Sequence record: OZ035754.1
Direction: 5' to 3' (one strand)
From: Kagunavirus BCH953P1
DNA: 44,622 nt
Shown: positions 18,094-38,004 of the stretch, piece by piece
Layout: each line of letters starts with the position of its first letter
Position numbering within the stretch: position 1 is the stretch's first letter
The notes under the pieces: model-generated
Database searches by the model: none
Told to the model about the DNA's origin: nothing
The model's input: the letters and a program-made list of their open reading frames with translations, nothing else
Position numbers and translations under genes: made by a program

Positions 18094-18455
18094 ATATTAA
18101 CGACTACACGGGTATACCTTACGACTTTCGCAAGCGCAATTGCTGGCATCACGTGCGCATTGTACGGGCGGATGCCGGGTTAGAAACTCCGGCGTTCGAT
18201 GTTACAAGCCCAACGGCGATTAACGAAGCGTTTGACGAAGGCCACCGCGACACGAAGGGGCTTACGAAAATTGATAAGCCTGAAAACTTCTGTGCGGTGC
18301 TTATGGGGTATCGCCGTGGTGGTCGTATAGTGTGGCACGCAGGAGTTTACTTCGACGGGATGGTGAGTCATTGTGAGCTTGCTTCCCGCCAGGTACGGCT
18401 TGACAGGCTGGCGGACCTCAGAGACACGTACACGGAGATTGAATTTTGGCGATAA
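18090..18455 (+). CDS. NlpC/P60-family tail assembly / tail-associated peptidase
   Basis: 121 aa; candidate catalytic Cys in RKRNCWHHV and His in VWHAGVY; ATGA overlap. Confidence 0.55.
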   Translation: MNINDYTGIPYDFRKRNCWHHVRIVRADAGLETPAFDVTSPTAINEAFDEGHRDTKGLTKIDKPENFCAVLMGYRRGGRIVWHAGVYFDGMVSHCELASRQVRLDRLADLRDTYTEIEFWR

Positions 18456-21001
18456 TCCTGCACTACACTCGAAATGCGGAAGGCGCTTTCGACCGTACAA
18501 AACACGTCGGGATGCCGATGGAGTTTGTCGTTAACCGTATTCCTGACGGCGTGCCGGTGCGCGTCTACCTCGGCGAGATTGGCGATGATACAGATGTAAC
18601 CGACGACTTCGAAGCGCTCAAAGACGAAGATGCCGTGTACCACATTATCGAAGGTGCGGGTAGCGGGGCGCTTGGTGCGGTTAGTAAGGTGTTCGGTTTT
18701 ATCCTTAAGCCAATCGCTAAGTTGTTTGGGTTGAACATGTCCGCAAACGCCAACTACACGGCGACTAACAACCAGACAACGTCACCGAATAACAGCCTCA
18801 CAGACCGCTCCAACAAGCCGCGTCCTTACGAGCGTTCTTATGACATCTGCGGTACTGTGCAGACAATCCCTAATGACCTGATGCAGACGTACAAGGCGTT
18901 CAACTCAACGGGTGCTTTGCTGGAGTATTCGTACTATGACGCAGGGCGCGGGCATCTGCATATTGAGGCTGATGGCGTCACGGAAGGTGACACTCTGATA
19001 AGCGACATCACAGGTTCCTCTGTTGCCGTGTATGCGCCGTATACTTCCCCGAACAACACCGCATCTCCGCAGCTACAAATCGGCGACGTCATTGACCAGA
19101 AACTCTATGTGACATATTCCAATGACGACGTTGACGGTATTGTACTGAAAGCGCCAAACGACATCGGAGCTAACCCAAGCGCTGACGGTACAGCAAAACG
19201 TATATCAAACACCGGCTACATCTATGACCCGTCGGGCGACTCTGCTTTTTCTGAGTTTCTTAGCGTTGGTGATGTGGCGGTGCTTAGCAACTTTGACGTT
19301 GCTGACGTCACTAACCTGAACGGCTCGTTTGAGGTTTTATATGTCGACGACTTCGAGGTTCGGTTGTACGTCGGGAATATAGGTAATTGGGGAAACCTTA
19401 ATAGCGGAGAGACTTACGCACTTACAGAGCGTTCAGATACGTTTATCGGCCCGAGCAACACCTATGACGTATCCCTGACCGACTGGTATTACATGGTGCG
19501 CGGAGAAGTTGACCGGGTGCTTGCTAACGTTGCCGGGCAGAACGGCCTCTACAAATACGACGGTGGGTATAACCGCACCAGCGTAACGGTGGAACTCCAG
19601 TACCAAATGATTGATTCTCAGCGTAACCCGTTGAGCGACATTTACACAGTACAGGCCACCATTACAGGCAACAATACGGATTACGTCGGTACGTCCATTT
19701 ATGGGCAGTTACCGACGGCGTCCCGTTTCCGCGCCCGTATGCGCCGCATAACGAATTATGACAAGGACTACGACGGAACAGTAAGCGACGAGATAACGTT
19801 CATTAACCTGTATGGGCAGTCACTGGACACCACACCGCACTACGGCAACAGAACTACCGTACATTGCGCCCGTAAACAGACGCCGCGCGCCGCCAGCATA
19901 GACAACCCGGAACTGCGCATGATTGCGACCGAGATGTGCTACAAATACTTAGGCAATGGAGTATTCGATACGGTAATGTCGCCAAATACTCAGGCTGTGC
20001 AGTCGCTAATCAGACTGGCACGTGACCCGGCGGTGGGTAATCTGCAACTGACAACGGCAAACATGGACAAGTTACTCGCCGTGCAGGAAGAGATTGAGTC
20101 CTATTTCGGAAGTGAATTAGCGGGGCAGTTCTGCTACACGTTCGACGACTACGACACCACGATGCAGGACATCGTTCAGACTATAGCGGAAGCCGTGTTC
20201 TGCACCGCGTACCGTAAAGGCGCGGATATTATGCTGCGATTCGACCGTCCGGTTGCTGGGCCTGAGATGGTGTTCACACACCGCAGCAAAACTACCGGTA
20301 CGGAGAAGTGGTCCCGCACGTTCAACGATTCGACGACCTACGATAGTCTGTCATTCTCGTACATCGACCCGGATACTAACGTACAGGAAACGATTTATAT
20401 CCCGGAAGAACTCGGAGCAAACACCGAGGAATACGAATCGAAGGGCGTGCGGAACTATCAGCAAGCGTACTGGCTGGCGTGGCGTCGCTACCAGCGCAAC
20501 ATGTTAAGTAAAGTTGTCGTAGAGTTCGAAGCGACCGAAGAGGGGGCACTCGCTACACCGGGCGGCGTAATCAGTGTGGTTAAAGGATCTCGCATCGCTC
20601 CTCAGGACGGCTATGTTGTTGCCGTTAATGGGCTTACGCTTACGCTGTCTCAGCCTGTTACGTTTACCCCAGGGGATGGCCATTCCATCATACTCAAGAA
20701 GCGCGACGGCTCGGTGCAGAGTATCTCTGTTATCAAAGGAAGTCACGACCGTGAGGTGATTATGCTCTCCGCGCCGGAGGAGGCAATCTACACAGGGAAT
20801 AGTGCACTAAAAACTGAGTTTTCATTCGGCAACGAAGCAAGGCATAATGCTCAGAAGATAGTTGTTTCCTCAATCGACCCGGGCGACGACCGCACGGTCA
20901 GGATTACTGGTTACAACTATGACGACGGATTCTATAAATACGACGGCGTCGCGCCATACGGCAGCGGTTTCTCCGACGGATACAGCAACGGTTTTTATTA
21001 A
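18446..21001 (+). CDS. tail tip / central tail fiber protein (host-specificity J-like)
   Basis: 851 aa, large beta-rich protein in distal tail cluster; likely TTG start at 18446, start uncertain. Confidence 0.6.
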   Translation: MAIILHYTRNAEGAFDRTKHVGMPMEFVVNRIPDGVPVRVYLGEIGDDTDVTDDFEALKDEDAVYHIIEGAGSGALGAVSKVFGFILKPIAKLFGLNMSANANYTATNNQTTSPNNSLTDRSNKPRPYERSYDICGTVQTIPNDLMQTYKAFNSTGALLEYSYYDAGRGHLHIEADGVTEGDTLISDITGSSVAVYAPYTSPNNTASPQLQIGDVIDQKLYVTYSNDDVDGIVLKAPNDIGANPSADGTAKRISNTGYIYDPSGDSAFSEFLSVGDVAVLSNFDVADVTNLNGSFEVLYVDDFEVRLYVGNIGNWGNLNSGETYALTERSDTFIGPSNTYDVSLTDWYYMVRGEVDRVLANVAGQNGLYKYDGGYNRTSVTVELQYQMIDSQRNPLSDIYTVQATITGNNTDYVGTSIYGQLPTASRFRARMRRITNYDKDYDGTVSDEITFINLYGQSLDTTPHYGNRTTVHCARKQTPRAASIDNPELRMIATEMCYKYLGNGVFDTVMSPNTQAVQSLIRLARDPAVGNLQLTTANMDKLLAVQEEIESYFGSELAGQFCYTFDDYDTTMQDIVQTIAEAVFCTAYRKGADIMLRFDRPVAGPEMVFTHRSKTTGTEKWSRTFNDSTTYDSLSFSYIDPDTNVQETIYIPEELGANTEEYESKGVRNYQQAYWLAWRRYQRNMLSKVVVEFEATEEGALATPGGVISVVKGSRIAPQDGYVVAVNGLTLTLSQPVTFTPGDGHSIILKKRDGSVQSISVIKGSHDREVIMLSAPEEAIYTGNSALKTEFSFGNEARHNAQKIVVSSIDPGDDRTVRITGYNYDDGFYKYDGVAPYGSGFSDGYSNGFY

Positions 21002-21013
21002 AGAGGATTCTAT

Positions 21014-22960
21014 ATGTCAAGCGGATGCGGTGACGTTTTATCGCTGGAAGATCTGAAAACGGCCAAGAAGCACCAGACCTTTGAGGCCGAAGTCATTACA
21101 GGGCGCGCAGGTGGTATATCATCCGGCGCGGAGATTGACTTTGCGACTAACCAGGTTACCGGACAAGTACAAAAAACTCTTCCGGCGATCCTGCGTGACA
21201 TGGGCTTTGACCCCGCGGCATTTGATTTCACCACCGGCGGCACTGTAACAGCACGTGACACCGTGGTTTACAATTCGGCGGATAATAACTGGTATTCGTG
21301 GGCGGGAGCGCTGCCGCATGTTGTTGTGCCGGGCACTGACCCGACGGCGGACAGTAACTGGAAACCGCGCACGGATCAGTTATTGCGGCAAAACCTGGCA
21401 TCATCCGTGATTCCGGGGACTTCGTTAGTGACCCACTCCGACGGTATTCCGCTTGATGATTATATAGAGATTTTTAACAGAAGAACTAAGTTTGTAATGC
21501 CCGAGGATTTTTCCGGCACTGACACCGAACAGTTACTGGCTGCAAACAGCTATGCGAAAGCAAATAGTGTTAACTTAGTTCTGCAACCAGGAAAGACATA
21601 TATCCTTACTGGTTCTACTGGCCTGGACATTGATTTAGGGTATTTTTCTTTTGGGTGTCCTTTTGGGCGTGCGGGTATCGACGCAACCGGTTTTACAGGT
21701 GATGCCCCGATATGGGTGCATTCCTCGGCGCCGTACTCCGTAGGTTATCGGGTGCATTCTAATATCATGCGCGGTGTATCAGTCGTTGGTAGCCTGAAAG
21801 GAACAGGGCAAGCAGGGATAATCATTGGTAATAAAAATAATAACGCCAATGGGACATATAACGGCGATTGCAACATAATGCATTGCAGTTTCAAAAACTT
21901 TGACAAATTACTATTAGCCACTAACTCAACTTGGCGTTATAAATTCACCGATTGCGGTTTTACCACAGAACTGACGGGAACAACGCACGCTATGCACTTC
22001 CCTTCGGGGCTTTCCGATTCTGGGGAGAGTATCAGTTTTGACAACTGTAAGATCTACGATACTAAGGGCGCTAAAATTCTGCTGGAATGCGCCAACTTCT
22101 CAATAGGTATGTCCGGCACATCCATCCTCAACTGCCCGGTAGAAATAACGGGCGCCGGTGCTTTAATAAATCTCGATAAAACCAGCAATATAGAGAATCC
22201 TGTAGCATCTGCATGGTATCGTTATGTTAAAGTTACGGGCGTGGGTGCTCGATTTAATTTTAACGGATGTACTATTGTCTGTAACAACATGTCTGTACAA
22301 ACACAGCCACTGTTTGAAGTTGGGCCAAATGCGTTTTTGGATTTCAGCCACGTTAAAATGCCGGGTAATAACTATCTTTTCCAGAACGGGACAGAAGGGC
22401 TAAGAACTTTTGTTGAGGGTGACGGATATGTTATCGCGACATCTGTCATCGCTGACATTGCTTCAGGAGCAGGAAATATTCCGCTACATAAATCATTAAA
22501 CCCTACCCGAAACTCAGGTTTTGAGACTGGTGATTTATCATCGTGGTCATTTAATAATCAGGGGTCTGCTAGTCAAACATGCGTAGTTGGTACAGCATAT
22601 AAGAAAACAGGTACCTATGGTGCGAGAATGACATCGTTCGGGTCATTAAGTTGTTTCTTAACTCAAAATGTAAAAGTAACACAGCATAATTATTACACGG
22701 TAACGTGCCAAATCAATACAATAACGGCAGGAGCAGGAACAACGGCAGGGGCGCTAACCGTTACATTTTACGATAGGGCTGGTAGCGCCATCCAATCAGG
22801 TGCAAGTAGTTCTTTTACTAATACACCTAGTGGATGGCAATCTGTAGGACAGTTCATACAAGGCCGAGTGCCGCAGGCCGCGGAATACTGCGAAGTGTCG
22901 ATACGCTGCCGTGAGGGTGCCGTTATTGACGTTGATAATTTTATTATTAATTTTACATAG
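21014..22960 (+). CDS. receptor-binding tail fiber / tailspike (possible beta-helix with C-terminal carbohydrate-binding region)
   Basis: 648 aa, last large late gene; SD AGAGGA; 3' two-thirds visibly AT-richer than the rest of the genome. Confidence 0.6.
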   Translation: MSSGCGDVLSLEDLKTAKKHQTFEAEVITGRAGGISSGAEIDFATNQVTGQVQKTLPAILRDMGFDPAAFDFTTGGTVTARDTVVYNSADNNWYSWAGALPHVVVPGTDPTADSNWKPRTDQLLRQNLASSVIPGTSLVTHSDGIPLDDYIEIFNRRTKFVMPEDFSGTDTEQLLAANSYAKANSVNLVLQPGKTYILTGSTGLDIDLGYFSFGCPFGRAGIDATGFTGDAPIWVHSSAPYSVGYRVHSNIMRGVSVVGSLKGTGQAGIIIGNKNNNANGTYNGDCNIMHCSFKNFDKLLLATNSTWRYKFTDCGFTTELTGTTHAMHFPSGLSDSGESISFDNCKIYDTKGAKILLECANFSIGMSGTSILNCPVEITGAGALINLDKTSNIENPVASAWYRYVKVTGVGARFNFNGCTIVCNNMSVQTQPLFEVGPNAFLDFSHVKMPGNNYLFQNGTEGLRTFVEGDGYVIATSVIADIASGAGNIPLHKSLNPTRNSGFETGDLSSWSFNNQGSASQTCVVGTAYKKTGTYGARMTSFGSLSCFLTQNVKVTQHNYYTVTCQINTITAGAGTTAGALTVTFYDRAGSAIQSGASSSFTNTPSGWQSVGQFIQGRVPQAAEYCEVSIRCREGAVIDVDNFIINFT

Positions 22961-22969
22961 GGGCGTGAA

Positions 22970-23143
22970 ATGTTAAAAGTAAATGTGTGGTTTATGTCAA
23001 CTGGCAATCTTCCTGTCACGGTGGACATAGATGCTGGCGAATTATCATTTTCTGATGAAATTGAAAAACAAGATTATGTGTTGGATTACTTAATGAACAA
23101 TGGATTTTCCGACAAAGAAGGATTGACGTTTAAAATAGATTAA
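22970..23143 (+). CDS. hypothetical small protein (57 aa), AT-rich
   Basis: ORF read from sequence just after the fiber gene and before the late terminator. Confidence 0.3.
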   Translation: MLKVNVWFMSTGNLPVTVDIDAGELSFSDEIEKQDYVLDYLMNNGFSDKEGLTFKID

Positions 23144-23175
23144 GGGGCGCAAGCCCCTTTCATTTTAAATTTTTG
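23142..23175 (+). terminator. rho-independent terminator at end of late operon (aggggc-gcaa-gcccct then T-rich)
   Basis: Hairpin followed by ttcattttaaattttt, seen directly. Confidence 0.6.
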
Positions 23176-23214
23176 CGTTATGATTTAGCGTGAAGTCTAA
23201 ATCTCAGCCAAAAT

Positions 23215-23343
23215 CTAGCACCTTGCACATTTCCTGACCGGCTTCTGGCACATTTTAACCGGAGTGACCGCCGTGGCGAAACCGGCATACGAGCAGCCCA
23301 GAACGGCGGCCAGAGTAATCGCGACAGCGGTAATACGATTCAT
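23215..23343 (-). CDS. hypothetical small lipoprotein-like peptide (42 aa)
   Basis: Read from sequence; N-terminus MNRITAVAITLAAVLGC resembles a signal peptide with lipobox; weak. Confidence 0.25.
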   Translation of the reverse strand: MNRITAVAITLAAVLGCSYAGFATAVTPVKMCQKPVRKCARC

Positions 23344-23385
23344 TGTGTTTGCTCCTGAAAGTAGGCCCCGAACGGGGCCTTTTCT

Positions 23386-23523
23386 CTACTCTTCTGATAA
23401 CTTCTCCAGTACAAACGCCAGTTGCGCGTTAGCGGCGTCTCTTTGCTGTCGTAGTCGTAGAACCTCCTCTTCGAGTTCCTTGATACGTTTTTGCAATGCC
23501 GGAATCGGAGCTATGATGTTCAT
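23386..23523 (-). CDS. hypothetical small coiled-coil protein (45 aa)
   Basis: Read from sequence; ATGA overlap with upstream ORF 23520..23705. Confidence 0.3.
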   Translation of the reverse strand: MNIIAPIPALQKRIKELEEEVLRLRQQRDAANAQLAFVLEKLSEE

Positions 23524-23705
23524 TTCTTACCTTCACTTTTCTTGAAACTGCGCTTTATATCCGGCAGCGTGTAGCACCGTGATTTTTCGTATTTACCGTC
23601 CGAGCTTACCAAAACAAAGCTGTTGCCGTCTCTTGATATGTACTCGATGGTGAAAATATTGAATGAATGTACGCTGTATATTTCATCGCCAACATTAAGT
23701 TTCAT
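23520..23705 (-). CDS. hypothetical protein (61 aa)
   Basis: Track ORF; ATGA overlap with the helicase gene upstream. Confidence 0.45.
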   Translation of the reverse strand: MKLNVGDEIYSVHSFNIFTIEYISRDGNSFVLVSSDGKYEKSRCYTLPDIKRSFKKSEGKK

Positions 23706-25126
23706 TTCTTACCTCGTCTCTTCATGTAATTTAGCAATTCTTCCTGGACCGATTTCTTCTCGTCCGTACGCGCAGCGACAACCTCATCCAGCGTGTCTTT
23801 AGCGACGATATGATAGAGGAACACCGGGCGCTCGTGGCCCGCCTGCTTCTGACGGACCGGGCCTATACGCTCAACAACCTGCAAATAGTGCTCAAGGTTC
23901 CAGCCTTGCGAAATAAACGCCAGATGATGGCCGCCGTCCTGTAAATTCAAACCATGACCGGCTGACGCAGGGTGAACGCATAAGATTTCGATTTCCCCAC
24001 GGTTCCACGCTTCCATCTGCTTATTACCCTTAGCACCTTTTGCGAACGCCTGCGCCTGCGGGAATCGCTTAAGGATGCGCTCAAGTTCGTGCTTGAACTG
24101 ATAGGCGACCAGCAACGGCGCTCCCTGTAACTCCTCGACAATCGACTCCAGCGCATCAAGTTTCGTGTCGTGCACTTTCTCCCAGTCTTTGGTTGCTTCG
24201 CCATCCGGTCCTGATACATACACGGCACCGGATGCAATCTGCAGACACTTCGACGTCTTCGCTGCGGCGTTAGCCGCTTCAACTTCTCCGCTCTCCAGTT
24301 CCGCGAATAACTTTTCCTCCATATCGATGTACGCCTGACGCGCCTTCTTCGGCAGGTCGATTTCAACCGGTACGATAACGGGCGCTTCACAACCGAACCA
24401 CTCAGCGGCATCAATCGTAAGGCTGATGTCCTTCATCTTCTGGTGAATTTCATTATCCGCACCCGGGCGGGCGTGGTACTCACGCGCCATCACCGACTTA
24501 CCTTTCTGTACCGAGTTAAACCATCGGTCGGTGAACGCGGTGTATGAAGAACCAAGTCGCTCGCCAGCGTCGATAAACCAGTTCTGCCCCCACAAGTCCT
24601 TGAGGCCGTTTGGCGACGGTGTACCGGTCAGGTTAATGAAGCGCTTAACCTTTCCAAATGCCACTTTGCTGAGCGCCTTAGCCCGCTTGCTCCCACCAGA
24701 ACGGCTACGGAATGATTTCAGTTTCGTGCTTTCATCAGCAACGATAACCGTAAAAGGCCAGTCGTCTTTGCCGTAGTAGTCAATTAGCCACTCGATAACT
24801 TCGTAGTTAGTACACACCACGTTAGCGTCCGACTCCAGCGCCGCGATGCGGCGCTTCTCTGAACCGGTCGCATCGACGACACGTAGACAAGGGAAGTTCC
24901 ATTTCTCTTGTTCTGCAGGCCATGTACCTGACGCAACACGTAAGGGGGCGAGGATTAACACACGGTCGTCGTCCGTAAGTTGCCCATTACGAAACAGGCG
25001 GTTTAGCACCCACATAGTAGAGGAGGTTTTACCCCCTCCCATGCCGCACCAGATATTACAGCGCGGATGTTGTAGCATGAACGAAGTCATGAGCTTCTGG
25101 TACTCTCGACGGATAAATTTAGACAT
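23702..25126 (-). CDS. SNF2/DEAD-like superfamily 2 DNA helicase
   Basis: Walker A GMGGGKTS, DExx motif VIVADEST, C-terminal helicase domain; start at internal ATG 25126 (MSKFIRRE) 2 nt after the methyltransferase stop; track ORF extends to 25444. Confidence 0.8.
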   Translation of the reverse strand: MSKFIRREYQKLMTSFMLQHPRCNIWCGMGGGKTSSTMWVLNRLFRNGQLTDDDRVLILAPLRVASGTWPAEQEKWNFPCLRVVDATGSEKRRIAALESDANVVCTNYEVIEWLIDYYGKDDWPFTVIVADESTKLKSFRSRSGGSKRAKALSKVAFGKVKRFINLTGTPSPNGLKDLWGQNWFIDAGERLGSSYTAFTDRWFNSVQKGKSVMAREYHARPGADNEIHQKMKDISLTIDAAEWFGCEAPVIVPVEIDLPKKARQAYIDMEEKLFAELESGEVEAANAAAKTSKCLQIASGAVYVSGPDGEATKDWEKVHDTKLDALESIVEELQGAPLLVAYQFKHELERILKRFPQAQAFAKGAKGNKQMEAWNRGEIEILCVHPASAGHGLNLQDGGHHLAFISQGWNLEHYLQVVERIGPVRQKQAGHERPVFLYHIVAKDTLDEVVAARTDEKKSVQEELLNYMKRRGKK

Positions 25127-29923: not shown

Positions 29924-30415
29924 TTATTTGCCGTGATTTTCGTGGAAACCGTACTTAACCTCTGCGGCCTTTCGCGCTGCTATTGCGCCGTCGATAGTTT
30001 CAAAACGTCCGAGATGAATTAGTTTCTTCTCAACTTTTATCTCAGCTCGCCATTTGCCGCGGGTTTTATCGAAACTAACACCCGTCACCCCTGACGTGTT
30101 GTTGCGGGCTAAAGATAAATTACGGCTGTTCTCTTTTCGGGTTGTTTTCCTTAAATTAGAAAGAAGATTATTTTCCCGATTATGGTCAATATGGTCTATC
30201 TCCTCTCCAGGTTGAAGTTTATTTTCAGGGTTCATCATATCCCATATAATTCTATGCGCCAGAAATGTCCTTCCACGTAAACGTACGCACACATAGCCCC
30301 AATTACGGACAGACGCGACCTCGCTCCCAGCGGGTGCACGATTGCTGTTAGTTACGCGCCAATACAACTTACCGGTATTGGTATCATACCTAAAATAATC
30401 TTCCCATTTAATCAT
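29924..30415 (-). CDS. HNH homing endonuclease with AP2 DNA-binding domain (copy 1)
   Basis: HNH motif EIDHIDHNRENN; AP2-like SGVTGVSFDKTRGKWRAEI; start at internal ATG 30415 in ATGA overlap with exonuclease stop. Confidence 0.75.
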   Translation of the reverse strand: MIKWEDYFRYDTNTGKLYWRVTNSNRAPAGSEVASVRNWGYVCVRLRGRTFLAHRIIWDMMNPENKLQPGEEIDHIDHNRENNLLSNLRKTTRKENSRNLSLARNNTSGVTGVSFDKTRGKWRAEIKVEKKLIHLGRFETIDGAIAARKAAEVKYGFHENHGK

Positions 30416-31653
30416 TCCAAATCCTCCTCTGTTACCCCCTTCCACTCAGGTCGTTTGTCGTCCGCCGTTGTAACGCATGGGGCTCCGGGCTTACGCGTGA
30501 TGAAGTTTTTTAGTTCTTCTTCTGGGATAACTTTCAAGGCTGCTGTAGGGGTCATGATTGACTTAGTCATAACTTTATCACCAAATTTAGCAATAACGGC
30601 ATCGGGGTCCGCCCAGGAGCGATTGCCATCCCGCCCTTCAACCAGCTTGTACCCCGGAACTTTCTTACCGGAATGCAACGCGGCAGCCATAGCTTTCTCA
30701 ACCTTGTCGATGTGCTGGCGCAACAACGGCAGCTTCTCATACTCGGCGACGAGTTGCTCTGGCGTCAATTCCAGCGCAAAGTCGTCCTCAAGTTCTTCCG
30801 CCAGTACCGCGTTAACGGTTTTTGTACGCGCGGCGCACTGTTCGGAGAACCGACACCACTGGCAACCATCTACTGACGGCTTGAAGTCCGACGCTTTCAG
30901 GTTCTTCTTGCCACGGAAATACGCATCAAGAGCTAACAGCGCACGTTTCTGTGCAAACTTAGCGAACAGTTCCAGACCTTCAACCGAGATGTCCCACTCC
31001 GACGCACCCCCAGCGTACGGCTGGAAGATGACCAGACGAACCATTGTTATGTTATAACGTCTCTTTAGTCGGCGATAAACACCGAGAGCGTAAAGCATAA
31101 GCTGCTTGTTTTCTTTCGCTTCGACACGATGTCGTCCTGTTTTCAGGTCGCCGATGATAAGCATGTGCTCTTCGGTGTTCGCCAGTTCCTGGACGGCAAC
31201 AAGGTCAGCGGTTCCGAACGTCTCGACACCTTCGTAACCAGGATGCAATACCTCAGTAAGATTGACGCGCATTTCCAGCTTAGCGTAAGTCGCTACGTCC
31301 ATAATCGCTTTGCAGTAGTCGGTGTACTTTCGCACCTGCTCAATCATGTCAGCCGTAATCAGCACCGCGCCTTTCATCGGGCTGATTAGCGCCTTAATCT
31401 GGCCTTTACCCTCATCCAGCACGTAAGCACCGACTTCGCGCTCTAACGGCAGTGCAGTGCCTTTTATGTACTGGTTTAAATGTACCTCAGCTATGGTGTG
31501 ACACGCGGTCCCTGTAACGGCGGCTTTACCTGACGTGTTGGGGATATCTTTTTCACAGGCCAGTGATGCACTGCACGCCAACCATTTCTTAGCACCGGAC
31601 GGTGACAACAGCGCGTGCACATCGTTATTGCCCCTGCGTTCTTTTAATTTCAT
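30412..31653 (-). CDS. PD-(D/E)xK exonuclease (Cas4/RecB-like, DUF2800-like) with C-terminal Cys cluster
   Basis: 413 aa; IIGDLKTGRH...EAKENKQLMLYALG nuclease core; Cys cluster CQWCRFSEQC. Confidence 0.6.
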   Translation of the reverse strand: MKLKERRGNNDVHALLSPSGAKKWLACSASLACEKDIPNTSGKAAVTGTACHTIAEVHLNQYIKGTALPLEREVGAYVLDEGKGQIKALISPMKGAVLITADMIEQVRKYTDYCKAIMDVATYAKLEMRVNLTEVLHPGYEGVETFGTADLVAVQELANTEEHMLIIGDLKTGRHRVEAKENKQLMLYALGVYRRLKRRYNITMVRLVIFQPYAGGASEWDISVEGLELFAKFAQKRALLALDAYFRGKKNLKASDFKPSVDGCQWCRFSEQCAARTKTVNAVLAEELEDDFALELTPEQLVAEYEKLPLLRQHIDKVEKAMAAALHSGKKVPGYKLVEGRDGNRSWADPDAVIAKFGDKVMTKSIMTPTAALKVIPEEELKNFITRKPGAPCVTTADDKRPEWKGVTEEDLE

Positions 31654-32144
31654 CTTTTAACCCCATGATTTTTGTGGAACCCGTAAATCTCTTCTGCTTT
31701 CTTTCTAACGTTTACCGCATCGTCGAAGCTGTCGAAGTATCCTAAATGCTTCAATACCTTGTTTATTTTTATACTTGCCCGCCATCTACCGCGCCTACGG
31801 CACCATGAAACTCCGGTCACACCTGACGTATTTAGCGACGACATTCCAGAATTACGCCGGTTGCCTAGACTGTCAACTTTACGAAGATTAGATATGCGAT
31901 TATTCCTTCTGTCATGGTCTATATGGTCAATCTGGTCGCCGCTACTTAAAACATCATTAGGATTACAAAGTTCCCATATAACACGGTGCACTTTATAGAC
32001 CTTACCTAACACTTGTACCTGTTTATAGCCGTGAACATCATTCGACCCCGCCTCTTGGCCTACCTTTACCTTATCCGAAGGGCTTATCTTCCAAAATAAT
32101 TTACCGGTATCAGGGTCATAGTCAAAAACTTCATGCCAATTCAT
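31650..32144 (-). CDS. HNH homing endonuclease with AP2 domain (copy 2, paralog)
   Basis: HNH motif QIDHIDHDRRNN; AP2-like SGVTGVSWCRRRGRWRASI; ATGA overlaps at both ends. Confidence 0.75.
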   Translation of the reverse strand: MNWHEVFDYDPDTGKLFWKISPSDKVKVGQEAGSNDVHGYKQVQVLGKVYKVHRVIWELCNPNDVLSSGDQIDHIDHDRRNNRISNLRKVDSLGNRRNSGMSSLNTSGVTGVSWCRRRGRWRASIKINKVLKHLGYFDSFDDAVNVRKKAEEIYGFHKNHGVKR

Positions 32145-33332: not shown

Positions 33333-35573
33333 CTACTCCAAATCCTCCTCTGTCACCACCAGCATTTCATTCGGTTCGTATATTGTCTTCGGCCTTAGTC
33401 TATCCCCTATTCTTTCAGGTATACGATATGTTCTCGGTACTACTTCGCCATTAGCGTCGCAGCCTAGCATCAACTCACCGTCTTTCAGCATTTTATCAAG
33501 ATGGGTGTTAGTCACAGAAAAGTCACCGGAACGGGCCACTATCTGCTGCTGGGTAAAACCGCGACCTGTATCATCTGACTGTTGCAGGTCTTCCAGTGCT
33601 GAAAGTATTGACTCCTTCCTTACTTCATCCCTGCCGCGTTTAACTTCTTCCTTTACTTTTTGTTTACCTTCGTTAGTTAACCCTTCTTCCCGCTCTTTCT
33701 CCTCGTCAGTTTTGAACGGCTCGAAACCCCACGGCATAAGCACAAGCGCCTTGTGCGGCTCCGGCAGGTCGAGGTTTACTATTGTGCCGTATTCCTCTGT
33801 GCTACCGAGGAACTCAACCGCGCGATACTCTTTCGGCGGAGGAGCTTCACGAAACTGTACAGACTCCAGCACCATACCAACCGTTTTCTGTTGAGGCCCG
33901 TGCTTAAATTTCGAATGGTATACGTTTATCTGGCGGTCGGTTGCACGTTCAATTGTCAGTTCCACGTCGACGCCCGCATACAGCGCCCCACTACCACGGG
34001 CTTTCTTTCCGCCCTTCGGCGTATGGTGGACGACGCCAACCGCAGCTTTAGTCGCGTCGCGTACTTCTTTCAGTATGGCGATAACTTTACCCATGCCAAT
34101 CGCCGTTGATGAACTGTTTTCGTCGAACTTATCAATCGTCAGGGCCAGCGTCTGGTTTAGGGTGTCGAACGCAACCATACCGATTGGCTCGTCGCCGGCG
34201 GTTTCACGCATCAACTTAATAAGGCTTTTCAGTTTGCCAACTTCGCCCATGTCGATGACATGTACATAATCTTTACCTTCCTCGCCGTATTTAGCCGCGA
34301 GTGCGTCAATACGTGTGCGTGTAGCTGCGCCGCCCTCACCGTCAATATAGAAATGGTGGCAACGCTGGGTATCCGCCCCTGCAAACCGGTATCCGGCGGC
34401 GCTCAGGTACATCATCCCCAGCGTATAGAACGATTTGTACGTGCCGGATTCCCCAACAATATCCCAGATACAATCTGACGGCATGTACCCCTCAACGACG
34501 AAATCAGCCTTTACCGGTTCCGGTAGCTCGTCCTCTTCTGAGTCATCATCGTCTTCCAGGTCGTCGAGGCTGCATGAAACAGATTCACGCGCACCCCATC
34601 CGATAGCCTCGGCGACTTCACTGAACGGCAGCCCGGTCGCATCACACGCGTATTTCCACACTTCTTTCGGTGACATGCCTTCGGTCGCCGCAATGTCGGT
34701 GTCGTGAATCATGGTTACGTTAGGTGCGGCGTAGCCCTCACGTGGGAAGCACAGCAGGAAGTCGTCCGGACGCGGTGTCGGGTCGCTGTAGTTTTCTGCA
34801 TGCTCTGGTGTGGCTGGCATCTTAAGGCCGCGTGGTGTCATAGCACCGCCGTACTCGAACGCCAACGCCTCAAAAGCGTCCGTAAACGCTGTGCGTAGTT
34901 CTTCCGGTATCTGGTAGTCAGATGCGCTGCTCACCTCGTAATCCGGGATGCCCTCCAGTAACTCGTCCGGGTCAATCAGGTCGTTACGGCGCGACCAGAT
35001 AACCTGCGAGCCGACCGGCGGCAGGTACATCGGCTGAGACAGAGTGAACCCGCTGCGGTCCGCACCCATGCCTTTGAAGAAGTGTTCCAACAATCCATGA
35101 CGAACGCGGATGATGTCACCGCCCTCAACCGTTCGGGCCAGCGGCATGACGACGCGAAAGCGCGGGGCTTCGTCTGTGTGTGATGCCGTGGTGTAGAGGC
35201 ACATGGCTTTACGGCTGCGCTTAACCAGGCGCACAGCTTCCTGATACTCTTCCAGGGTTGCGCTGTCGAAGTCCAGGTACGTCAGCGACGATTTGTTTAC
35301 AGACGCGTCGCAGCGGTAGAAGAAGCCCCGGCGCGCTTGCTTAAAGTCACCGGTTTCCGGGTCTTTTACGGTGCTGTGCGTAGAATCGCACGCGGCAGTA
35401 ATATAGCCCGGCGCGGTCTTCGGATTAATCCCGTCACGAACGGCATCGAGCGGCTGGATTAACTCTTTCAGGTCGTCCAGTGTTGCCGTGTGAGTGGTTC
35501 TGACGTTTATATCCTTTTTCTCTGCCCGCGCGTTGCGACGAGACCACGAGTAGGATAAAATTACATCGGACAT
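33333..35573 (-). CDS. DNA primase/helicase (RecA-like AAA_25-type ATPase domain in C-terminal half)
   Basis: 746 aa; Walker A-like VGESGTYKS, Walker B-like region; N-terminal half unassigned (primase-like by position). Confidence 0.6.
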   Translation of the reverse strand: MSDVILSYSWSRRNARAEKKDINVRTTHTATLDDLKELIQPLDAVRDGINPKTAPGYITAACDSTHSTVKDPETGDFKQARRGFFYRCDASVNKSSLTYLDFDSATLEEYQEAVRLVKRSRKAMCLYTTASHTDEAPRFRVVMPLARTVEGGDIIRVRHGLLEHFFKGMGADRSGFTLSQPMYLPPVGSQVIWSRRNDLIDPDELLEGIPDYEVSSASDYQIPEELRTAFTDAFEALAFEYGGAMTPRGLKMPATPEHAENYSDPTPRPDDFLLCFPREGYAAPNVTMIHDTDIAATEGMSPKEVWKYACDATGLPFSEVAEAIGWGARESVSCSLDDLEDDDDSEEDELPEPVKADFVVEGYMPSDCIWDIVGESGTYKSFYTLGMMYLSAAGYRFAGADTQRCHHFYIDGEGGAATRTRIDALAAKYGEEGKDYVHVIDMGEVGKLKSLIKLMRETAGDEPIGMVAFDTLNQTLALTIDKFDENSSSTAIGMGKVIAILKEVRDATKAAVGVVHHTPKGGKKARGSGALYAGVDVELTIERATDRQINVYHSKFKHGPQQKTVGMVLESVQFREAPPPKEYRAVEFLGSTEEYGTIVNLDLPEPHKALVLMPWGFEPFKTDEEKEREEGLTNEGKQKVKEEVKRGRDEVRKESILSALEDLQQSDDTGRGFTQQQIVARSGDFSVTNTHLDKMLKDGELMLGCDANGEVVPRTYRIPERIGDRLRPKTIYEPNEMLVVTEEDLE

Positions 35574-35631
35574 ATTGTATATTCCTTCAGCAAGTAATTT
35601 GGCCTCGGCGCTCTAACGTCGGGGCTTTCTT

Positions 35632-35865
35632 TTATTCCAGGTCTTCTAAAGTAGCGGCCATTCCGCGAACTTCAGCAACAGCACTATATTTCCCACCAAC
35701 ATTTTTCACGACACCAGATTTAACCAGCACCTTCAACGACCCTTCAATAATGGCGGAACTATAGTACCTAAAATAACTACGGCGCAAGTCGATAACGCTG
35801 CACGACCCTTTTTTACGTGTTAACGAAACGACTGCCGTGAATACGCGTGACTGGAACTCGGTCAT
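35632..35865 (-). CDS. hypothetical protein (77 aa)
   Basis: Track ORF; C-terminus ends EDLE like two other proteins in this block. Confidence 0.5.
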   Translation of the reverse strand: MTEFQSRVFTAVVSLTRKKGSCSVIDLRRSYFRYYSSAIIEGSLKVLVKSGVVKNVGGKYSAVAEVRGMAATLEDLE

Positions 35866-36032
35866 TTCACATTCTCCTTAATCCACGCTTCCACTTTCTC
35901 CGGGTCAAACGTACCCGGCTGACGGCGGCCCATAATGCGGATACAACAATCCGGGAACTTCCCGCTCTTTAGCCAGTTATTCAGTGTGCGACGAGTAACC
36001 CCGATACGCTCGGCTACTTCATTCTGTGTCAT
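35862..36032 (-). CDS. small HTH DNA-binding protein (AlpA/excisionase-like fold), probable early regulator
   Basis: HTH MTQNEVAERIGVTRRTLNNW; start taken at internal ATG 36032 because the predicted promoter P9 lies at 36066..36093 (track ORF extends to 36065). Confidence 0.5.
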   Translation of the reverse strand: MTQNEVAERIGVTRRTLNNWLKSGKFPDCCIRIMGRRQPGTFDPEKVEAWIKENVK

Positions 36033-36065
36033 TCTCAAACCCTCAGTATCAGTTAACGAAACCAA

Positions 36066-36093
36066 GTATACATTGCGAATAATGGGAAATCAA
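36066..36093 (-). promoter_or_regulatory. candidate sigma70 promoter P9 (TTGATT-N16/17-TATACT) for the minus-strand replication operon
   Basis: Read on minus strand; moderate match. Confidence 0.35.
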
Positions 36094-36182
36094 ACATAAT
36101 CGCACCTATTGACATTATGAAAATCTTCGTTTAAGGTGCTTCTATATCTTAGTTACTTTGATTCCTGTTCACCTTGTAAGAA

Positions 36183-36216
36183 TGTTTAACCCGTGCGTCA
36201 AGCAAAGGGTTAAACA
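36183..36216. promoter_or_regulatory. inverted repeat tgtttaaccc / gggttaaaca (10-bp arms, 14-nt spacer) in the early control region
   Basis: Seen directly. Confidence 0.4.
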
Positions 36217-36370
36217 CAGGCTTACTGAACACGAGAATTATCATAACTTTCCTTCCTTAGTATCTCCGGTTGCCCTGGGCAAGCTATATTCTCATCAACG
36301 GCATATCTCTTAAGTATCTGATTTTCTTAATGTGCCGTAGATTCGCAACCGTAAAAATGTAACCCTTACC

Positions 36371-36394
36371 GGGCGGGCTTAAGGCCCGCCCTTT
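36371..36394 (+). terminator. GC-rich hairpin gggcgggc-ttaag-gcccgccc followed by TTT
   Basis: Seen directly, in intergenic region upstream of P6. Confidence 0.4.
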
Positions 36395-36464
36395 AGTTAC
36401 AAAGTAATAAGAATAAAGGCACGACCCTGCCTGAAGAATCACAACGGCAACGTAACTATTCTCT

Positions 36465-36493
36465 TGCACACCCCAACATAATAGGATACTATT
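36465..36493 (+). promoter_or_regulatory. sigma70-type promoter P6 (TTGCAC-N17-TACTAT), B-family
   Basis: TTGCACACCCCAACATAATAGGATACTAT; near-identical to P1/P2; 25 nt upstream of the first plus-strand early gene. Confidence 0.6.
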
Positions 36494-36517
36494 CACTTAT
36501 CGTAACGAGACAGAGGA

Positions 36518-36712
36518 GTGAGGGTTATGTTTAAGAAGGGTCAGTTGGTGAAGATTTTGGAGACCGGAGAGTTAGCGGTTATCTCATTTATGCACCACAG
36601 AGAATATGAGGTCTATTTTGCTAAATCTTTAACGGAGTCCTATCTCACCGTGCTATACGCGCAAGATATGAAACTCATCGGCAACAATTTTAAATTCAAA
36701 GGGGCGAAGTGA
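36518..36712 (+). CDS. hypothetical early protein (64 aa)
   Basis: Track ORF; SD GGAGTGAGGG. Confidence 0.5.
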   Translation: MRVMFKKGQLVKILETGELAVISFMHHREYEVYFAKSLTESYLTVLYAQDMKLIGNNFKFKGAK

Positions 36713-36912
36713 TGGAAGAATTATTTGAGGAACTGAAACATCATGAGTTCGAGGAGATATATTTTGTAGCTGGACGCTACGAGGCGCATTTAGTGGACGG
36801 GATTACACTTATTACGGTGGATAGCCTGCAAATGTTAAATAGCTTACGTGCGCTACGAACGGCATCGAATCATGATGCTCGTGCCGACGACTCTGAGGGA
36901 GGTTGCCGTTGA
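36712..36912 (+). CDS. hypothetical early protein (66 aa)
   Basis: Track ORF 36709..36912, start set at ATG overlapping upstream stop. Confidence 0.45.
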   Translation: MEELFEELKHHEFEEIYFVAGRYEAHLVDGITLITVDSLQMLNSLRALRTASNHDARADDSEGGCR

Positions 36913-37169
36913 TGAATAATACTGAACTGAAAACAGTAGCGGAATATAACCGTAAAATACGGGTCATGCGTCGTGGTGCGGGGCTGGAGCAGTTCTATAA
37001 CATGTGGCGCATTGCGACGCGCGACCCTGAGTTTCTTCAGACAGGTTATTATTCCATTAAAGGCATTATCCCGATTCGTGCACGTAAGGATTATGGTTGG
37101 GTTCGTGAGACCCCTAATCTTTTGTGGTGCTGGTATTGTGGTGAATTCTGGGTAAGGGTTAAGGACTGA
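36912..37169 (+). CDS. hypothetical early protein (85 aa)
   Basis: Track ORF 36903..37169, start set at ATG in TGATG overlap. Confidence 0.45.
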   Translation: MNNTELKTVAEYNRKIRVMRRGAGLEQFYNMWRIATRDPEFLQTGYYSIKGIIPIRARKDYGWVRETPNLLWCWYCGEFWVRVKD

Positions 37170-37240
37170 GTTATGAATAATTACCCGTTTATTTTAATCG
37201 TCAGCGTCGTTTATGTGGCGCACGTGTTGTGGGGTTTGGT

Positions 37241-37441
37241 ATGAGCAAGTGGATTAAGTGTAGTGAGCGGATGCCGCGCTGCGAGCCGGGTAGGTGGTCA
37301 AAAGATGTTATTGCACTAAGTGATACTGGGGAGGTGTTTCGTCTGGCCTGTCAAGGTGAATACTGGCAAAGAACGTCAGCGTTCGTTGAATCAGGTTCAG
37401 AAAAAGTGGTTGCATGGATGCCGTTCCCTGATGAGGACTAA
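37241..37441 (+). CDS. DUF551-like protein (copy 1)
   Basis: MSKWIKCSERMP...W..WMPFP pattern typical of the DUF551 phage family; paralog at 37592..37777. Confidence 0.55.
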   Translation: MSKWIKCSERMPRCEPGRWSKDVIALSDTGEVFRLACQGEYWQRTSAFVESGSEKVVAWMPFPDED

Positions 37442-37444
37442 GTT

Positions 37445-37588
37445 ATGAGAGAAGCATTTGAACGGTGGGCCGTCATCGAGGGTCTGCCGGTCAACAAGGG
37501 TTCAAAGAAAGAGTACCTGAACGTTAAGACCCGTCTCGCGTGGCGGGCGTGGAGAGCTGGTGTGCAAGCGGTTATGGACCGGGGGTGA
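37445..37588 (+). CDS. hypothetical small protein (47 aa)
   Basis: Read from sequence, fills the gap between the two DUF551 genes. Confidence 0.3.
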   Translation: MREAFERWAVIEGLPVNKGSKKEYLNVKTRLAWRAWRAGVQAVMDRG

Positions 37589-37591
37589 GAT

Positions 37592-37777: not shown

Positions 37778-37818
37778 TGTTATATTGTAACAATAGCTTG
37801 GGATTTTACTGAGTGACT

Positions 37819-37840
37819 TACGCTGCTGTGCAGCAGCGTA
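37819..37840. repeat. near-perfect palindrome TACGCTGCTG-tg-CAGCAGCGTA
   Basis: 10-bp perfect arms seen directly in a 227-bp intergenic region. Confidence 0.6.
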
Positions 37841-37973: not shown

Positions 37974-38004
37974 TCATTTACACAAACGAGAGGAGAGATA
38001 GAAG

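Follow-up and report, generated by a model that had tools for sequence, protein, structure and literature searches.

A probable mobile receptor-binding cassette related to Klebsiella K2 capsule depolymerases in the tailspike locus of Kagunavirus BCH953P1

Introduction

According to the modular model of tailspikes, an N-terminal anchor of ~130–150 residues is combined with an enzymatic receptor-binding domain that can be exchanged (Pas et al. 2023, PMC10408124). Among the enzymes described so far, Dep17 and 1611E-K2-1 are K2 depolymerases of Jedunavirus phages. Dep17, encoded by phage vB_KpnM_JYSS3, has been shown by experiment to strip the K2 capsule, and the recombinant protein is active when expressed alone (PMC12542494). 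The K2-2 tailspike (8IQ5/8IQ9/8IQE) is a retaining hydrolase specific for K2, with grooves between its subunits (mBio 2024, PMC10936425). Its catalytic residues are Glu267, Glu323, and Asp278, Arg331 recognises the substrate through a salt bridge to the carboxylate of glucuronic acid, and a C-terminal domain, equivalent to the sandwich described below, governs trimerisation (PMC10936425).

Here, we analyse the tailspike locus of phage BCH953P1 (sequence record OZ035754.1; the whole stretch of 44,622 nucleotides is referred to as the window). The window belongs to a Kagunavirus, a siphovirus of the Guernseyvirinae, and shares 99.8% identity with OZ035805, a record that carries no annotation. 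Its tailspike shares 72–73% of the amino acids with Dep17 and 1611E-K2-1 over aa 60–648 (85–93% in the C-terminal domain), and all three have the same catalytic residues, a homologous small gene downstream (ORF57), and the same terminator hairpin. The first ~60 residues are, however, unrelated: those of the Jedunavirus enzymes serve attachment to a myovirus baseplate, whereas those of BCH953P1 serve attachment to a siphovirus tail tip. Moreover, the Jedunavirus genes lie inside the baseplate operon, whereas that of BCH953P1 comes last in the late operon. K2-2 is more distant: when the structures are aligned by Foldseek, only ~26% of the residues are identical, and the N-terminus is different. 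As in the modular model, receptor-binding domains group according to the glycan of the host rather than the taxonomy of the phage. The locus differs from that model in that the cassette brings a companion ORF and a terminator of its own, and in that the anchor has also been exchanged, which departs from the rule that anchors follow taxonomy.

Taken together, the AT-rich block in this locus is best explained as a mobile receptor-binding cassette, a reading to which we assign a probability of roughly 0.8. It is a clear yet ordinary example that adds one further case to the known swapping of receptor-binding modules in phages, and its conceptual value is modest.

Results and discussion

A compositional step within the tailspike gene

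The features of the locus are compiled in Table 1. The GC content of the window is 50.65%, that of positions 21400–23143 is 43.0%, and just 0.19% of all 1744-nt stretches in the GC profile are that low, with a minimum of 42.5% at 21459–23202. A two-state likelihood scan placed the strongest low-GC segment of the window at 21453–23742 (2dLL 48.8; the runner-up, 35551–38150, reached 32.5), with the left change point at 21453 (support 21374–21472). Within the tailspike gene, the initial 387 nt have a GC content of 55.3% and the remainder one of 44.0%.

Table 1. Coordinates of the features in and around the tailspike locus of BCH953P1
Feature	Position	Strand	Basis or remark
Tailspike gene, 648 aa	21014..22960	+	ORF; mosaic: anchor, linker, depolymerase beta-helix, C-terminal CBM-like domain
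N-terminal virion anchor, aa 1–135	21014..21417	+	Normal GC, 55%; Tail_spike_N-like beta domain at aa 56–120
Inter-domain linker, aa 136–159	21418..21490	+	Putative left recombination junction; GC change point
Catalytic parallel beta-helix, aa 160–480	21491..22453	+	K2-type capsule depolymerase by alignment to K2-2
Catalytic-equivalent codons	E338 22025–22027; D349 22058–22060; E394 22193–22195	+	Alignment to K2-2, positions verified
C-terminal beta-sandwich, CBM-like, aa 511–648	22544..22957	+	Foldseek
ORF57, 57 aa, acidic, pI 4.1	22970..23143	+	Starts 9 nt past the tailspike stop; 32.8% GC
Intrinsic-terminator hairpin of the cassette, GGGGC-N4-GCCCC, then T-rich tail	23142..23159	+	Terminator scan; overlaps the ORF57 stop
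Spacer, remnant 3' end of a ~90-aa minus-strand gene	23160..23241		Right end of the putatively acquired cassette
42-aa ORF with signal peptide and lipobox LAAVLG|C	23215..23343	-	Translation comparison
Backbone bidirectional terminator hairpin	23363..23380		Terminator scan; homology to E. coli Kagunaviruses restarts here

The codon positions revealed where the difference lies. For aa 1–129 of the tailspike, GC1, GC2, and GC3 were 0.589, 0.488, and 0.581, respectively, and for aa 130–648 they were 0.455, 0.470, and 0.397; the length-weighted means of the 53 ORFs were 0.563, 0.421, and 0.559. Over the 519 codons of the distal part, the GC3 deficit relative to the genome mean corresponds to a z of −7.4, and no other ORF of at least 70 aa in the window has a GC3 as low. 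We conclude that the GC drop at 21400–23143 exceeds chance and sits mainly at synonymous sites, whose composition deviates from that of the resident genome, a feature that is not specific to recent transfer.

The preliminary description had judged the DNA to be AT-rich from about 21.4 kb onward and the N-terminus of the fiber to be of typical composition. Both statements hold upon computation, and the GC content is not uniform. AT-richness was further said to last until the late terminator; the low GC is there, but the right edge is blurrier than implied, with an island of 51–53% GC at 23200–23400 followed by GC-poor small minus-strand genes up to ~23740.

Homology breakpoints and exchange among phages

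The tailspike gene directly follows a gpJ-like tail-tip gene, in synteny with Golestan, Bas75, RP180, VLCpiS11a, and 37P2. The protein matched PHROG 4217 ("tail protein", E 4e-149, aa 66–648) and phrog_29731 ("tail spike", aa 1–110), and the anchor gave a weak match to Pfam PF18668 (aa 71–110). Residues 1–145 are 62–74% identical to those of Golestan and RP180. By gene position and conserved N-terminal sequence, the anchor is that of a Guernseyvirinae/Kagunavirus tailspike.

The E. coli Kagunaviruses are 94–97% identical to the window up to ~21000 and ~63% identical past 21100. Their homology stops at 21199–21249 and restarts at 23363, as seen in the alignments of Golestan, Bas75, and RP180. 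The interval in between matched the tailspikes of Klebsiella Jedunavirus myophages and of KlebP_265/DP01-type siphophages, as well as those of Klebsiella-type Guernseyvirinae and of K. pneumoniae temperate phages. The Jedunavirus matches cover 21266–21532 and 22187–23163, and the KlebP_265 match covers 21401–23233. The highest values were obtained for the Guernseyvirinae contig L020 (87.5% nt over 21025–23241; 97–100% aa over aa 136–648), the Jedunavirus-type L025 (88.7% nt over 21221–23163), and the temperate phages L024 and L026 (88–89% nt over 21482–22962). Homology to KlebP_265 and to the temperate phages starts in or close to the linker, near the residues that the AF2 model predicts with low confidence (aa 121–138 and 152–157). 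The same receptor-binding domain stands behind at least six different N-termini, in tailspikes of 648, 660, 668, 669/673, 745/746, and 794/811 aa, and the N-terminal types of the carriers include K. pneumoniae chromosomal contigs. Judged from these comparisons, the breakpoints and the recurrence of the segment in unrelated phage backbones mark it as a probable mobile receptor-binding cassette, in agreement with the horizontally exchanged module that had been proposed before.

The anchor requires separate consideration. Between 21012 and 21417, the window differs from the distantly related Klebsiella-type Guernseyvirinae contig L017 by 6 mismatches (98.5% nt identity; 97–100% aa identity in the anchor), and mismatches turn dense from 21418 onward. 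Because the flanking sequence of L017 is only 60–70% identical to the window, the anchor has been exchanged as well. Despite its normal GC content, it is not native to the backbone, but the product of a recent exchange within the subfamily, between members that are only distantly related. The compositional step is therefore a junction inside a larger block that was replaced, ~21012–23362, and not the edge of a transfer. Within a tailspike gene, such a step indicates a junction at a domain boundary and need not give the limit or the recency of a transfer.

Could the K2-type tailspike instead be ancestral in the lineage, the E. coli Kagunaviruses having replaced theirs, so that nothing was acquired in the window? 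The Guernseyvirinae-type contigs L017, L018, and L020 share the 647–648-aa architecture including ORF57 and align colinearly with the window at 74–88% nt identity, similar to or slightly above the divergence of the backbone, as ancestry would have it. The identity along the gene is, however, strongly mosaic. Compared with L017, it falls from 98.5% in the anchor to 54–69% in the beta-helix and rises again to 85–91% in the C-terminal domain, and the pattern is reversed for L020, which makes clonal descent impossible. Thus, colinear homology across the whole protein, which the preliminary description had named as the outcome that would speak against its reading, gave way to mosaic identity and breakpoints. 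In addition, the adjoining backbone is 94–97% identical to that of E. coli phages bearing other receptor-binding domains, and the domain itself recurs at ~88% nt identity in myophages and temperate phages. We consider an ancestral origin very improbable.

The favoured reading of a mobile cassette implies a unit composed of the last three quarters of the tailspike gene (linker, K2-type beta-helix, and CBM-like sandwich), the 57-aa ORF, and the terminator hairpin. It would move by homologous recombination, with one arm in the linker after the anchor domain (aa ~136–200) and the other in the conserved block formed by the C-terminal domain, the small ORF, and the terminator. A search for a near-identical donor yielded at best ~88% nt identity (L020 and L024–L026), so that neither direction nor date of the transfer can be stated.

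Origin of the low GC content

The GC3 of the module is 0.39–0.49 in carriers with GC3 values of 0.43–0.63 in adjacent genes, and its AT-rich codon usage persists unaltered in genomes where the tail or baseplate genes next to it range from 0.43 to 0.66. Relative to L020, the codons of the window contain 166 synonymous and 9 nonsynonymous differences. The synonymous changes are balanced (65 from GC to AT and 72 from AT to GC), and the two GC3 values are 0.398 and 0.406. The tailspikes of Golestan, Bas75, RP180, and VLCpiS11a, which carry unrelated receptor-binding domains, have a GC3 of 0.40–0.44 in the distal part and of 0.54–0.62 at the N-terminus. Since the unrelated domains of these sister phages are equally AT-rich, AT-richness is no sign of recent arrival, and composition alone does not prove a foreign origin. 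We conclude that AT-richness is a stable property of the module, which marks membership of a mobile pool and not recent arrival. The low GC, which is concentrated at the third positions of codons, would stay with the cassette in whatever genome it occupies, and would stem from a promiscuous, AT-richer pool of receptor-binding modules and not from the composition of phage BCH953P1.

Alternatively, AT-richness could be a functional constraint on beta-helix tailspike genes in general, caused by slow-translation codons for co-translational folding or by a protein composition with many N, S, T, G, and I residues, and not the footprint of a foreign origin. The low GC3 of the unrelated domains and of the K2 module, which is at ~0.40 in all of its carriers, would fit this view, as would the balanced changes relative to L020, which look like an equilibrium, and the lowered GC1. 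On the other hand, GC2 exceeds the genome mean (0.47 vs. 0.42), and amino acid composition was therefore rejected as the main cause. The 37P2 tailspike, with a normal distal GC3 of 0.544, demonstrates that low GC is not needed by a tailspike. The other genes with the lowest GC3 in the window are classic mobile genes that encode no beta-helix, namely those of HNH_3+AP2 homing endonucleases. ORF57 contains no beta-helix and is yet more AT-rich than the tailspike, and the compositional step coincides with the homology breakpoints. A general constraint is thus an unlikely explanation when compared with a mobile pool.

We also considered KlebP_265-type genomes as the compositional home of the module. 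Their local GC3 of 0.43–0.47 fits, but with a genome of 48.1% GC the tailspike is still lower; no clear donor emerges from this comparison.

The depolymerase domains and the predicted host

A phmmer search against the PDB retrieved the K2-2 tailspike (8iqe/8iq5/8iq9) with an E value of 1e-52 for aa 175–639. The AF2 model of the BCH953P1 protein has a pLDDT of 82, with values of at least 90 for most of aa 160–648, and its best Foldseek matches were 8iq9 and 8iq5 (E 5e-34, TM 0.81). [quoted passage not shown] For the C-terminal region, a beta-helix or a carbohydrate-binding fold had been anticipated; the model predicts both. Of all parts of the module, the sandwich is conserved best, with 78–100% aa identity to all carriers.

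Residues E338, E394, and D349 align with Glu267, Glu323, and Asp278 of K2-2, respectively, and are invariant in 11 homologues as well as in a set of 40. Arg331 of K2-2 stands opposite Y402, and the neighbouring R403 aligns with Arg332, so that a register shift of one residue is possible; R403 is shared by all 11 close homologues, but is not invariant among the 40 sequences. By homology, conserved catalytic carboxylates, and predicted fold, the distal part of the tailspike belongs to the family of K2-type Klebsiella capsule depolymerases. Given its homology to K2-2, it would act as a retaining glycosidase in an inter-subunit groove, using the Glu/Glu pair E338 and E394 with the help of D349.

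Homologous tailspikes were detected by tblastn in 135 phage records. The great majority of these phages have K. pneumoniae as host, and every record that gives a capsule type or a known K2 strain (B5055, ATCC 43816) points to K2. The module is common in K. pneumoniae chromosomes, and no match was found in 5,426 complete E. coli genomes. Together with 72–73% aa identity to Dep17 and KLPPOU148 and the K2-specific activity of such relatives (PMC12542494), this bears out the earlier view of the segment as the host-range determinant. The beta-helix core (aa 201–300) is 100% identical to that of L020 and only ~50% identical to the tested Dep17/1611E-K2-1 type, and K2 specificity of the BCH953P1 variant is therefore an extrapolation from relatives and their K2 hosts. 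The relatives (PMC12542494, PMC10936425) and the K2 hosts of the homologous phages likewise suggest a trimeric assembly. In the infection process, the N-terminal anchor would hold the trimer on the tail tip, and the tailspike would bind and cleave a K2-type capsule, so that the virion reaches the outer membrane; the tailspike would thereby set the host range. The predicted host is K2-capsulated Klebsiella and not E. coli. A likely host glycan, the Klebsiella K2-type capsule, can thus be assigned to a phage that was deposited unannotated and with no host given, and an E. coli-type Kagunavirus backbone can evidently carry a Klebsiella receptor-binding cassette. The coordinates of domains and junctions are usable for grafting or swapping the depolymerase in engineering.

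ORF57, a small gene linked to the tailspike

Based on sequence comparison with nine homologues, ORF57 is a real gene under purifying selection (dN/dS 0.07–0.20). It matched phrog_29315, and AF2 predicts a beta-beta-alpha-beta fold (pLDDT 86). A LisH domain match in Pfam (E 0.016) was below the curated cut-off and was taken as chance.

By tblastn, ORF57 was found in 32 phage records, i.e., 31 of Klebsiella phages and that of Kagunavirus BCH953P1; 34 records contain a tailspike distal part that is at least 60% identical. Phages with a distal part below 60% identity, the range of K2-2-like proteins, gave no ORF57 homologue in this search. Among the 32 records, ORF57 directly follows the same tailspike type in all nine carrier loci read. 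Including a 59-aa homologue, the association extends to 14 of 14 loci read and to five of the six or more anchor types, which substantiates the suggestion that the ORF was acquired together with the module. The homologue starts 8–10 nt after the stop codon in the five anchor/genome backgrounds read (tailspikes of 648, 657/660, 668, 746, and 811 aa). In the temperate phages it is the divergent 59-aa version, located 10 nt after the tailspike. This allele adjoins a distal part of 88–89% nt identity, so that there is no co-variation between ORF57 alleles and the C-terminal domain, which speaks against a chaperone. A profile HMM of ORF57 retrieved 8 matches from 1.84 billion representatives, including two small-ORF clusters (57 aa, and the 59-aa variant P0150). 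The remaining matches were partial, extended, or long multi-stretch proteins, and the three long multi-stretch ones were discarded as repeat artefacts. No fusion of ORF57 to the tailspike C-terminus was present in 120 homologues.

The list of virion proteins identified by LC-MS/MS for MMNM/MEW1 lacks the ORF57 homologue MMNM_25 and contains the products of the two flanking genes, MMNM_24 and MMNM_26 (PMC8269216, Table S4). Its absence is consistent with a non-structural role, keeping in mind that a 57-aa protein is easily missed. We conclude that ORF57 is an accessory gene of the cassette whose product is probably not part of the virion.

Tail-fibre assembly chaperones, such as Tfa of lambda and P2 or gp38 and gp57A of T4, are encoded just downstream of the fibre gene. 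ORF57 resembles them in its position 3' of a receptor-binding gene, in its presumed late co-transcription, and in not being detected in the virion. It is, however, much smaller and has no sequence or fold similarity to them, and comparisons by Pfam, PHROG, structure, and profile HMM revealed no similarity to known chaperones. Moreover, a related depolymerase folds actively without it: the activity of Dep17 in the absence of its ORF57 homologue argues against a strict requirement for folding. Membership in the tail-fibre chaperones is not supported, and only the positional analogy holds.

The most likely role of ORF57 would be that of an aid to the assembly or maturation of the tailspike in vivo. 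We tentatively suggest that the 57/59-aa beta-beta-alpha-beta proteins form a previously unrecognised, tailspike-coupled accessory family whose members might assist assembly, trimerisation, or tail attachment. If so, a minimal trans-acting helper would allow one depolymerase cassette to plug into structurally different tails, and the family would be linked to the CBM-terminated K2 depolymerase across lytic myophages, siphophages, and temperate phages. It is also conceivable, if rather doubtful, that ORF57 rides along as a selfish or unrelated gene, a moron encoding, e.g., an anti-defence or host-modulating peptide. Such a passenger would have no role in the tailspike, and its place between the tailspike stop and the cassette terminator would be the sole reason for its staying there. 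Its GC content of 33%, far below that of the tailspike itself, would suit a passenger, as would alleles that recombination can part right at the tailspike stop (22962 is the last position with homology to the temperate phages), the activity of recombinant Dep17 on its own, and a small acidic fold lacking chaperone-like relatives. Yet a homologue occupies the identical position in all five backgrounds, even where the allele has been replaced, and a moron would be expected elsewhere too, whereas the HMM search returned only the two small-ORF clusters.

The right end of the cassette

The terminator hairpin at the end of ORF57 has a fold energy of −13.1 kcal/mol (z −3.3). Its stem is kept, with changes in the loop only, in 12 of the 12 loci with the 57-aa allele for which downstream sequence was read. 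The following spacer corresponds to a ~90-aa minus-strand gene that is located downstream of ORF57 in KlebP_265, DP01, L017, L018, and L020, an intact 92-aa gene being present in L018 and L020. From 23140 to 23233/41, the window is 75–88% identical at the nucleotide level to L006, L017, L018, and L020, and from 23225 to 23380 it is ~85% identical to VLCpiS11a and 37P2. The backbone hairpin, with fold energies of −16.2 kcal/mol on the plus strand and −17.8 kcal/mol on the minus strand, is 97% identical in ~100 E. coli phages. Comparison of the 42-aa ORF with gp34 of VLCpiS11a, the corresponding 37P2 protein, and a 106-aa protein of L018 identifies it as what is left, by truncation or fusion, of a lipoprotein gene of 79–106 aa that belongs to Klebsiella-type Guernseyvirinae.

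Composition of the tailspike region

The distal part of the receptor-binding fiber gene and the small ORF behind it had been described, by eye, as AT-rich, and computation confirmed this. The GC content was 43.0% in 21400-23143 versus 50.65% in the window; only 0.19% of equal-length windows were as low, with the global minimum (42.5%) at 21459-23202. A two-state likelihood scan placed the left edge of the strongest low-GC segment of the window at 21453 (support 21374-21472), and the first 387 nt of the tailspike gene had 55.3% GC compared with 44.0% for the rest. The 57-aa ORF had 32.8% GC. The left edge was as first described, but the right edge was fuzzier, with a 51-53% GC island at 23200-23400. 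GC at the first, second, and third codon positions (GC1/GC2/GC3) was 0.455/0.470/0.397 in the distal tailspike versus 0.563/0.421/0.559 for the mean of 53 ORFs, a GC3 deficit of z = -7.4; the N-terminal 129 codons had a GC3 of 0.581. Thus, the shift is mostly synonymous, and amino-acid composition at the second position does not account for it.

Next in strength among the low-GC segments of the window is 35551-38150 (45.2% GC, score 2dLL 32.5), which coincides with a GC-skew strand switch and few long ORFs and is probably an early or regulatory region. Matches to sigma-70-like promoters in 20800-23800 numbered 15, versus 5.2 ± 2.0 in shuffled sequences. On both strands, several fall within the AT-rich body of the tailspike gene, and the excess may be a by-product of the local AT-richness.

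Features of the tailspike region and further low-GC3 genes
Feature	Position	Strand	Remark
gpJ-like tail-tip gene	18446-21001		
Tailspike gene	21014-22960	plus	
57-aa ORF	22970-23143		3' of tailspike
42-aa ORF	23215-23343	minus	intact signal peptide and lipobox (LAAVLG|C); left by a fusion deletion
Small genes and SNF2 helicase	after 57-aa ORF	minus	
Paralogous HNH_3 + AP2-domain homing-endonuclease genes (two)	29924-30415, 31650-32144	minus	GC3 0.42, next-lowest in window

Golestan, Bas75, and RP180, all Guernseyvirinae, have the same gene arrangement. Region 20500-23600 was 99.8% identical to the unannotated Kagunavirus BCH953P1 record OZ035805, in which no host is given, and identical contigs were present in two sequencing runs. 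The segment 23526-23694, just upstream of the helicase gene, is polymorphic among these isolates, which are otherwise nearly identical: here BCH953P1 and contig L023 have a longer stretch of different sequence encoding a 77-aa ORF versus the 61-aa ORF of the window (phrog_27617, unknown function).

Exchange of the receptor-binding module

Escherichia coli Kagunaviruses were 94-97% identical to the window up to ~21000 and ~63% identical beyond 21100. Their alignments ended at 21199-21249 and restarted at 23363, a strong bidirectional terminator hairpin. Between these breakpoints, the window matched Klebsiella phages, which upholds the proposal of a horizontally exchanged receptor-binding module. 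Jedunavirus myophages (KLPPOU148, JYSS3, 1611E-K2-1, and others) matched 21266-21532 and 22187-23163, and the siphophages KlebP_265 and DP01 matched 21401-23233. Closer relatives were added from metagenomic and isolate assemblies: the Guernseyvirinae-type contig L020 (87.5% nucleotide identity over 21025-23241; 97-100% amino-acid identity for residues 136-648), a Jedunavirus-type locus (L025; 88.7%), and the temperate, integrase-bearing Klebsiella phages L024 and L026/L027 (88-89% over 21482-22962). In a protein search, at least six different N-termini preceded the same receptor-binding domain, some on K. pneumoniae chromosomal contigs. None of 5,426 complete E. coli genomes carried the module.

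In L024 (2477-7468), a K. pneumoniae-associated contig, the tailspike and a 59-aa ORF lie between two holin-lysozyme lysis cassettes, as though the tailspike cassette had entered the lysis region or duplicated it. This gene pair is located just upstream of the lysis genes and the integrase in L026/L027.

It is textbook knowledge that tailspikes can combine a conserved anchor with glycan-specific receptor-binding domains that are exchanged horizontally (PMC10408124). The tailspike of the window departs from the rule that the anchor follows taxonomy. Its N-terminus is typical in composition, as the preliminary description held, yet it has been exchanged too. Positions 21012-21417 differed from 3043-3448 of L017, a 39-kb Klebsiella-type Guernseyvirinae contig, by just 6 mismatches (98.5% identity), whereas the flanking genes, including the upstream one, were only 60-70% identical. 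This boundary was knife-sharp at the tailspike start codon. Identity to L017 fell to 54-69% across the beta-helix, and the C-terminal domain and 57-aa ORF were again 85-91% identical. The block replaced relative to E. coli Kagunaviruses is therefore ~21012-23362, and the compositional step at ~21450 is an internal junction between a GC-normal anchor of Guernseyvirinae origin and the AT-rich cassette. Two segments of low confidence in the AF2 model (residues 121-138 and 152-157) flank this junction, which separates the N-terminal beta domain from the beta-helix. The anchor swap is a second exchange, apparently a recent one.

In the gpJ-like gene, ~400 internal nt (19115-19512) did not align to E. 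coli Kagunaviruses, while the flanks aligned at 84-86%; by sequence comparison, this segment is a further variable cassette within a gene of host interaction.

What the AT-richness means

The GC3 of the module was 0.39-0.49 across all carriers, and 0.43 to 0.63 in their adjacent genes. In the distal part, the window and L020 differed by 166 synonymous versus only 9 nonsynonymous codons. Because GC-to-AT and AT-to-GC differences were balanced (65 vs 72) and GC3 was equal, the composition of the module is stationary rather than ameliorating. The module is thus stably AT-rich, and its AT-richness gives no date for the transfer. Unrelated receptor-binding domains of Golestan, Bas75, RP180, and VLCpiS11a were likewise AT-rich distally with a normal N-terminus, a pattern absent from the 37P2 tailspike. 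The other lowest-GC3 genes of the window are the two homing-endonuclease genes, inserted among replication genes. Low GC3 is best explained as the mark of a fast-moving gene pool common to phages; selection on tailspike genes possibly contributes. No compositional home of the module was identified, KlebP_265 included in the comparison (48.1% GC overall, tailspike 44.9%).

The tailspike as a probable K2-type depolymerase

Both a beta-helix and a carbohydrate-binding fold, as anticipated, were recovered. A phmmer search of the PDB matched the K2-2 tailspike (8IQ5/8IQ9/8IQE; E 1e-52) and Kp7 gp52 (7XYC). The AF2 model (pLDDT 82) superposed on K2-2 with a TM score of 0.81, and its last ~140 residues matched CBM16/CBM61/CBM22 beta-sandwiches. 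In K2-2, Glu267 and Glu323 are catalytic, Asp278 contributes, and Arg331 recognises the substrate carboxylate (PMC10936425). The equivalents of the first three, E338, E394, and D349, were invariant in 40 homologues. Arg331 aligned to Y402; the adjacent R403 showed conservation across the 11 close homologues examined. Recombinant Dep17, the JYSS3 depolymerase, strips K2 capsule (PMC12542494) and is 72-73% identical to the window tailspike. Wherever records of homologous phages named a capsule type or known K2 strain, it was K2. As the window/L020 type and the Dep17 type share only ~50% identity in the beta-helix core (residues 201-300), we infer K2 specificity of this variant as probable. K2 depolymerases are a well-studied family, of which the window tailspike is a previously unannotated member.

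The 57-aa companion ORF

The 57-aa ORF starts 9 nt past the tailspike stop codon, and its own 3' end falls within a conserved terminator hairpin. The suggestion that it was acquired with the module was upheld. A tblastn search found it in 32 phage records, compared with 34 records carrying a distal tailspike at least 60% identical. Pairwise dN/dS against nine homologues was 0.07-0.20, and the C-terminal half was almost invariant. The family comprised only 27 clusters in a set of 5.8 billion proteins, and profile searching of 1.84 billion representatives added only a 59-aa variant (~40% identical, 31-33% GC, common DYxxDYLMNNG motif). In temperate phages, whose nucleotide homology to the window ends exactly at the tailspike stop codon, this variant stands in the place of the 57-aa ORF. 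The AF2 model of the 57-aa protein (pI 4.1) gave a confident beta-beta-alpha-beta fold, for which no informative structural neighbour was found. The MEW1/MMNM virion LC-MS/MS list contains MMNM_24 and MMNM_26 but lacks the homologue MMNM_25 (PMC8269216), and recombinant Dep17 is active without the ORF. We therefore conclude that the ORF is a real, selected companion gene, and probably non-structural. Our leading guess is that it helps tailspike assembly; a strong competing reading is that it is a passenger moron.

Right boundary of the cassette

In the Guernseyvirinae-type contigs L018 and L020, the 57-aa ORF is followed by a minus-strand gene of ~92 aa. Positions 23160-23241 are what is left of the 3' end of this gene; KlebP_265, DP01, and L017 contain related sequence. 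A lipoprotein gene (79-106 aa) of Klebsiella Guernseyvirinae (VLCpiS11a, 37P2, L018) matches 23225-23380 with its 5' part. A deletion, estimated at ~450 nt against the L018/L020 arrangement, fused the two remnants out of frame. In Klebsiella-type Guernseyvirinae, the full-length lipoprotein gene is found opposite the tailspike. The 42-aa ORF, compared with L018 5474-5794 and the comparison locus L008 4878-5117, is its truncated 5' part and may be either a pseudogene or a mini-lipoprotein. The location of this ORF is reminiscent of receptor-masking lipoproteins such as T5 Llp.
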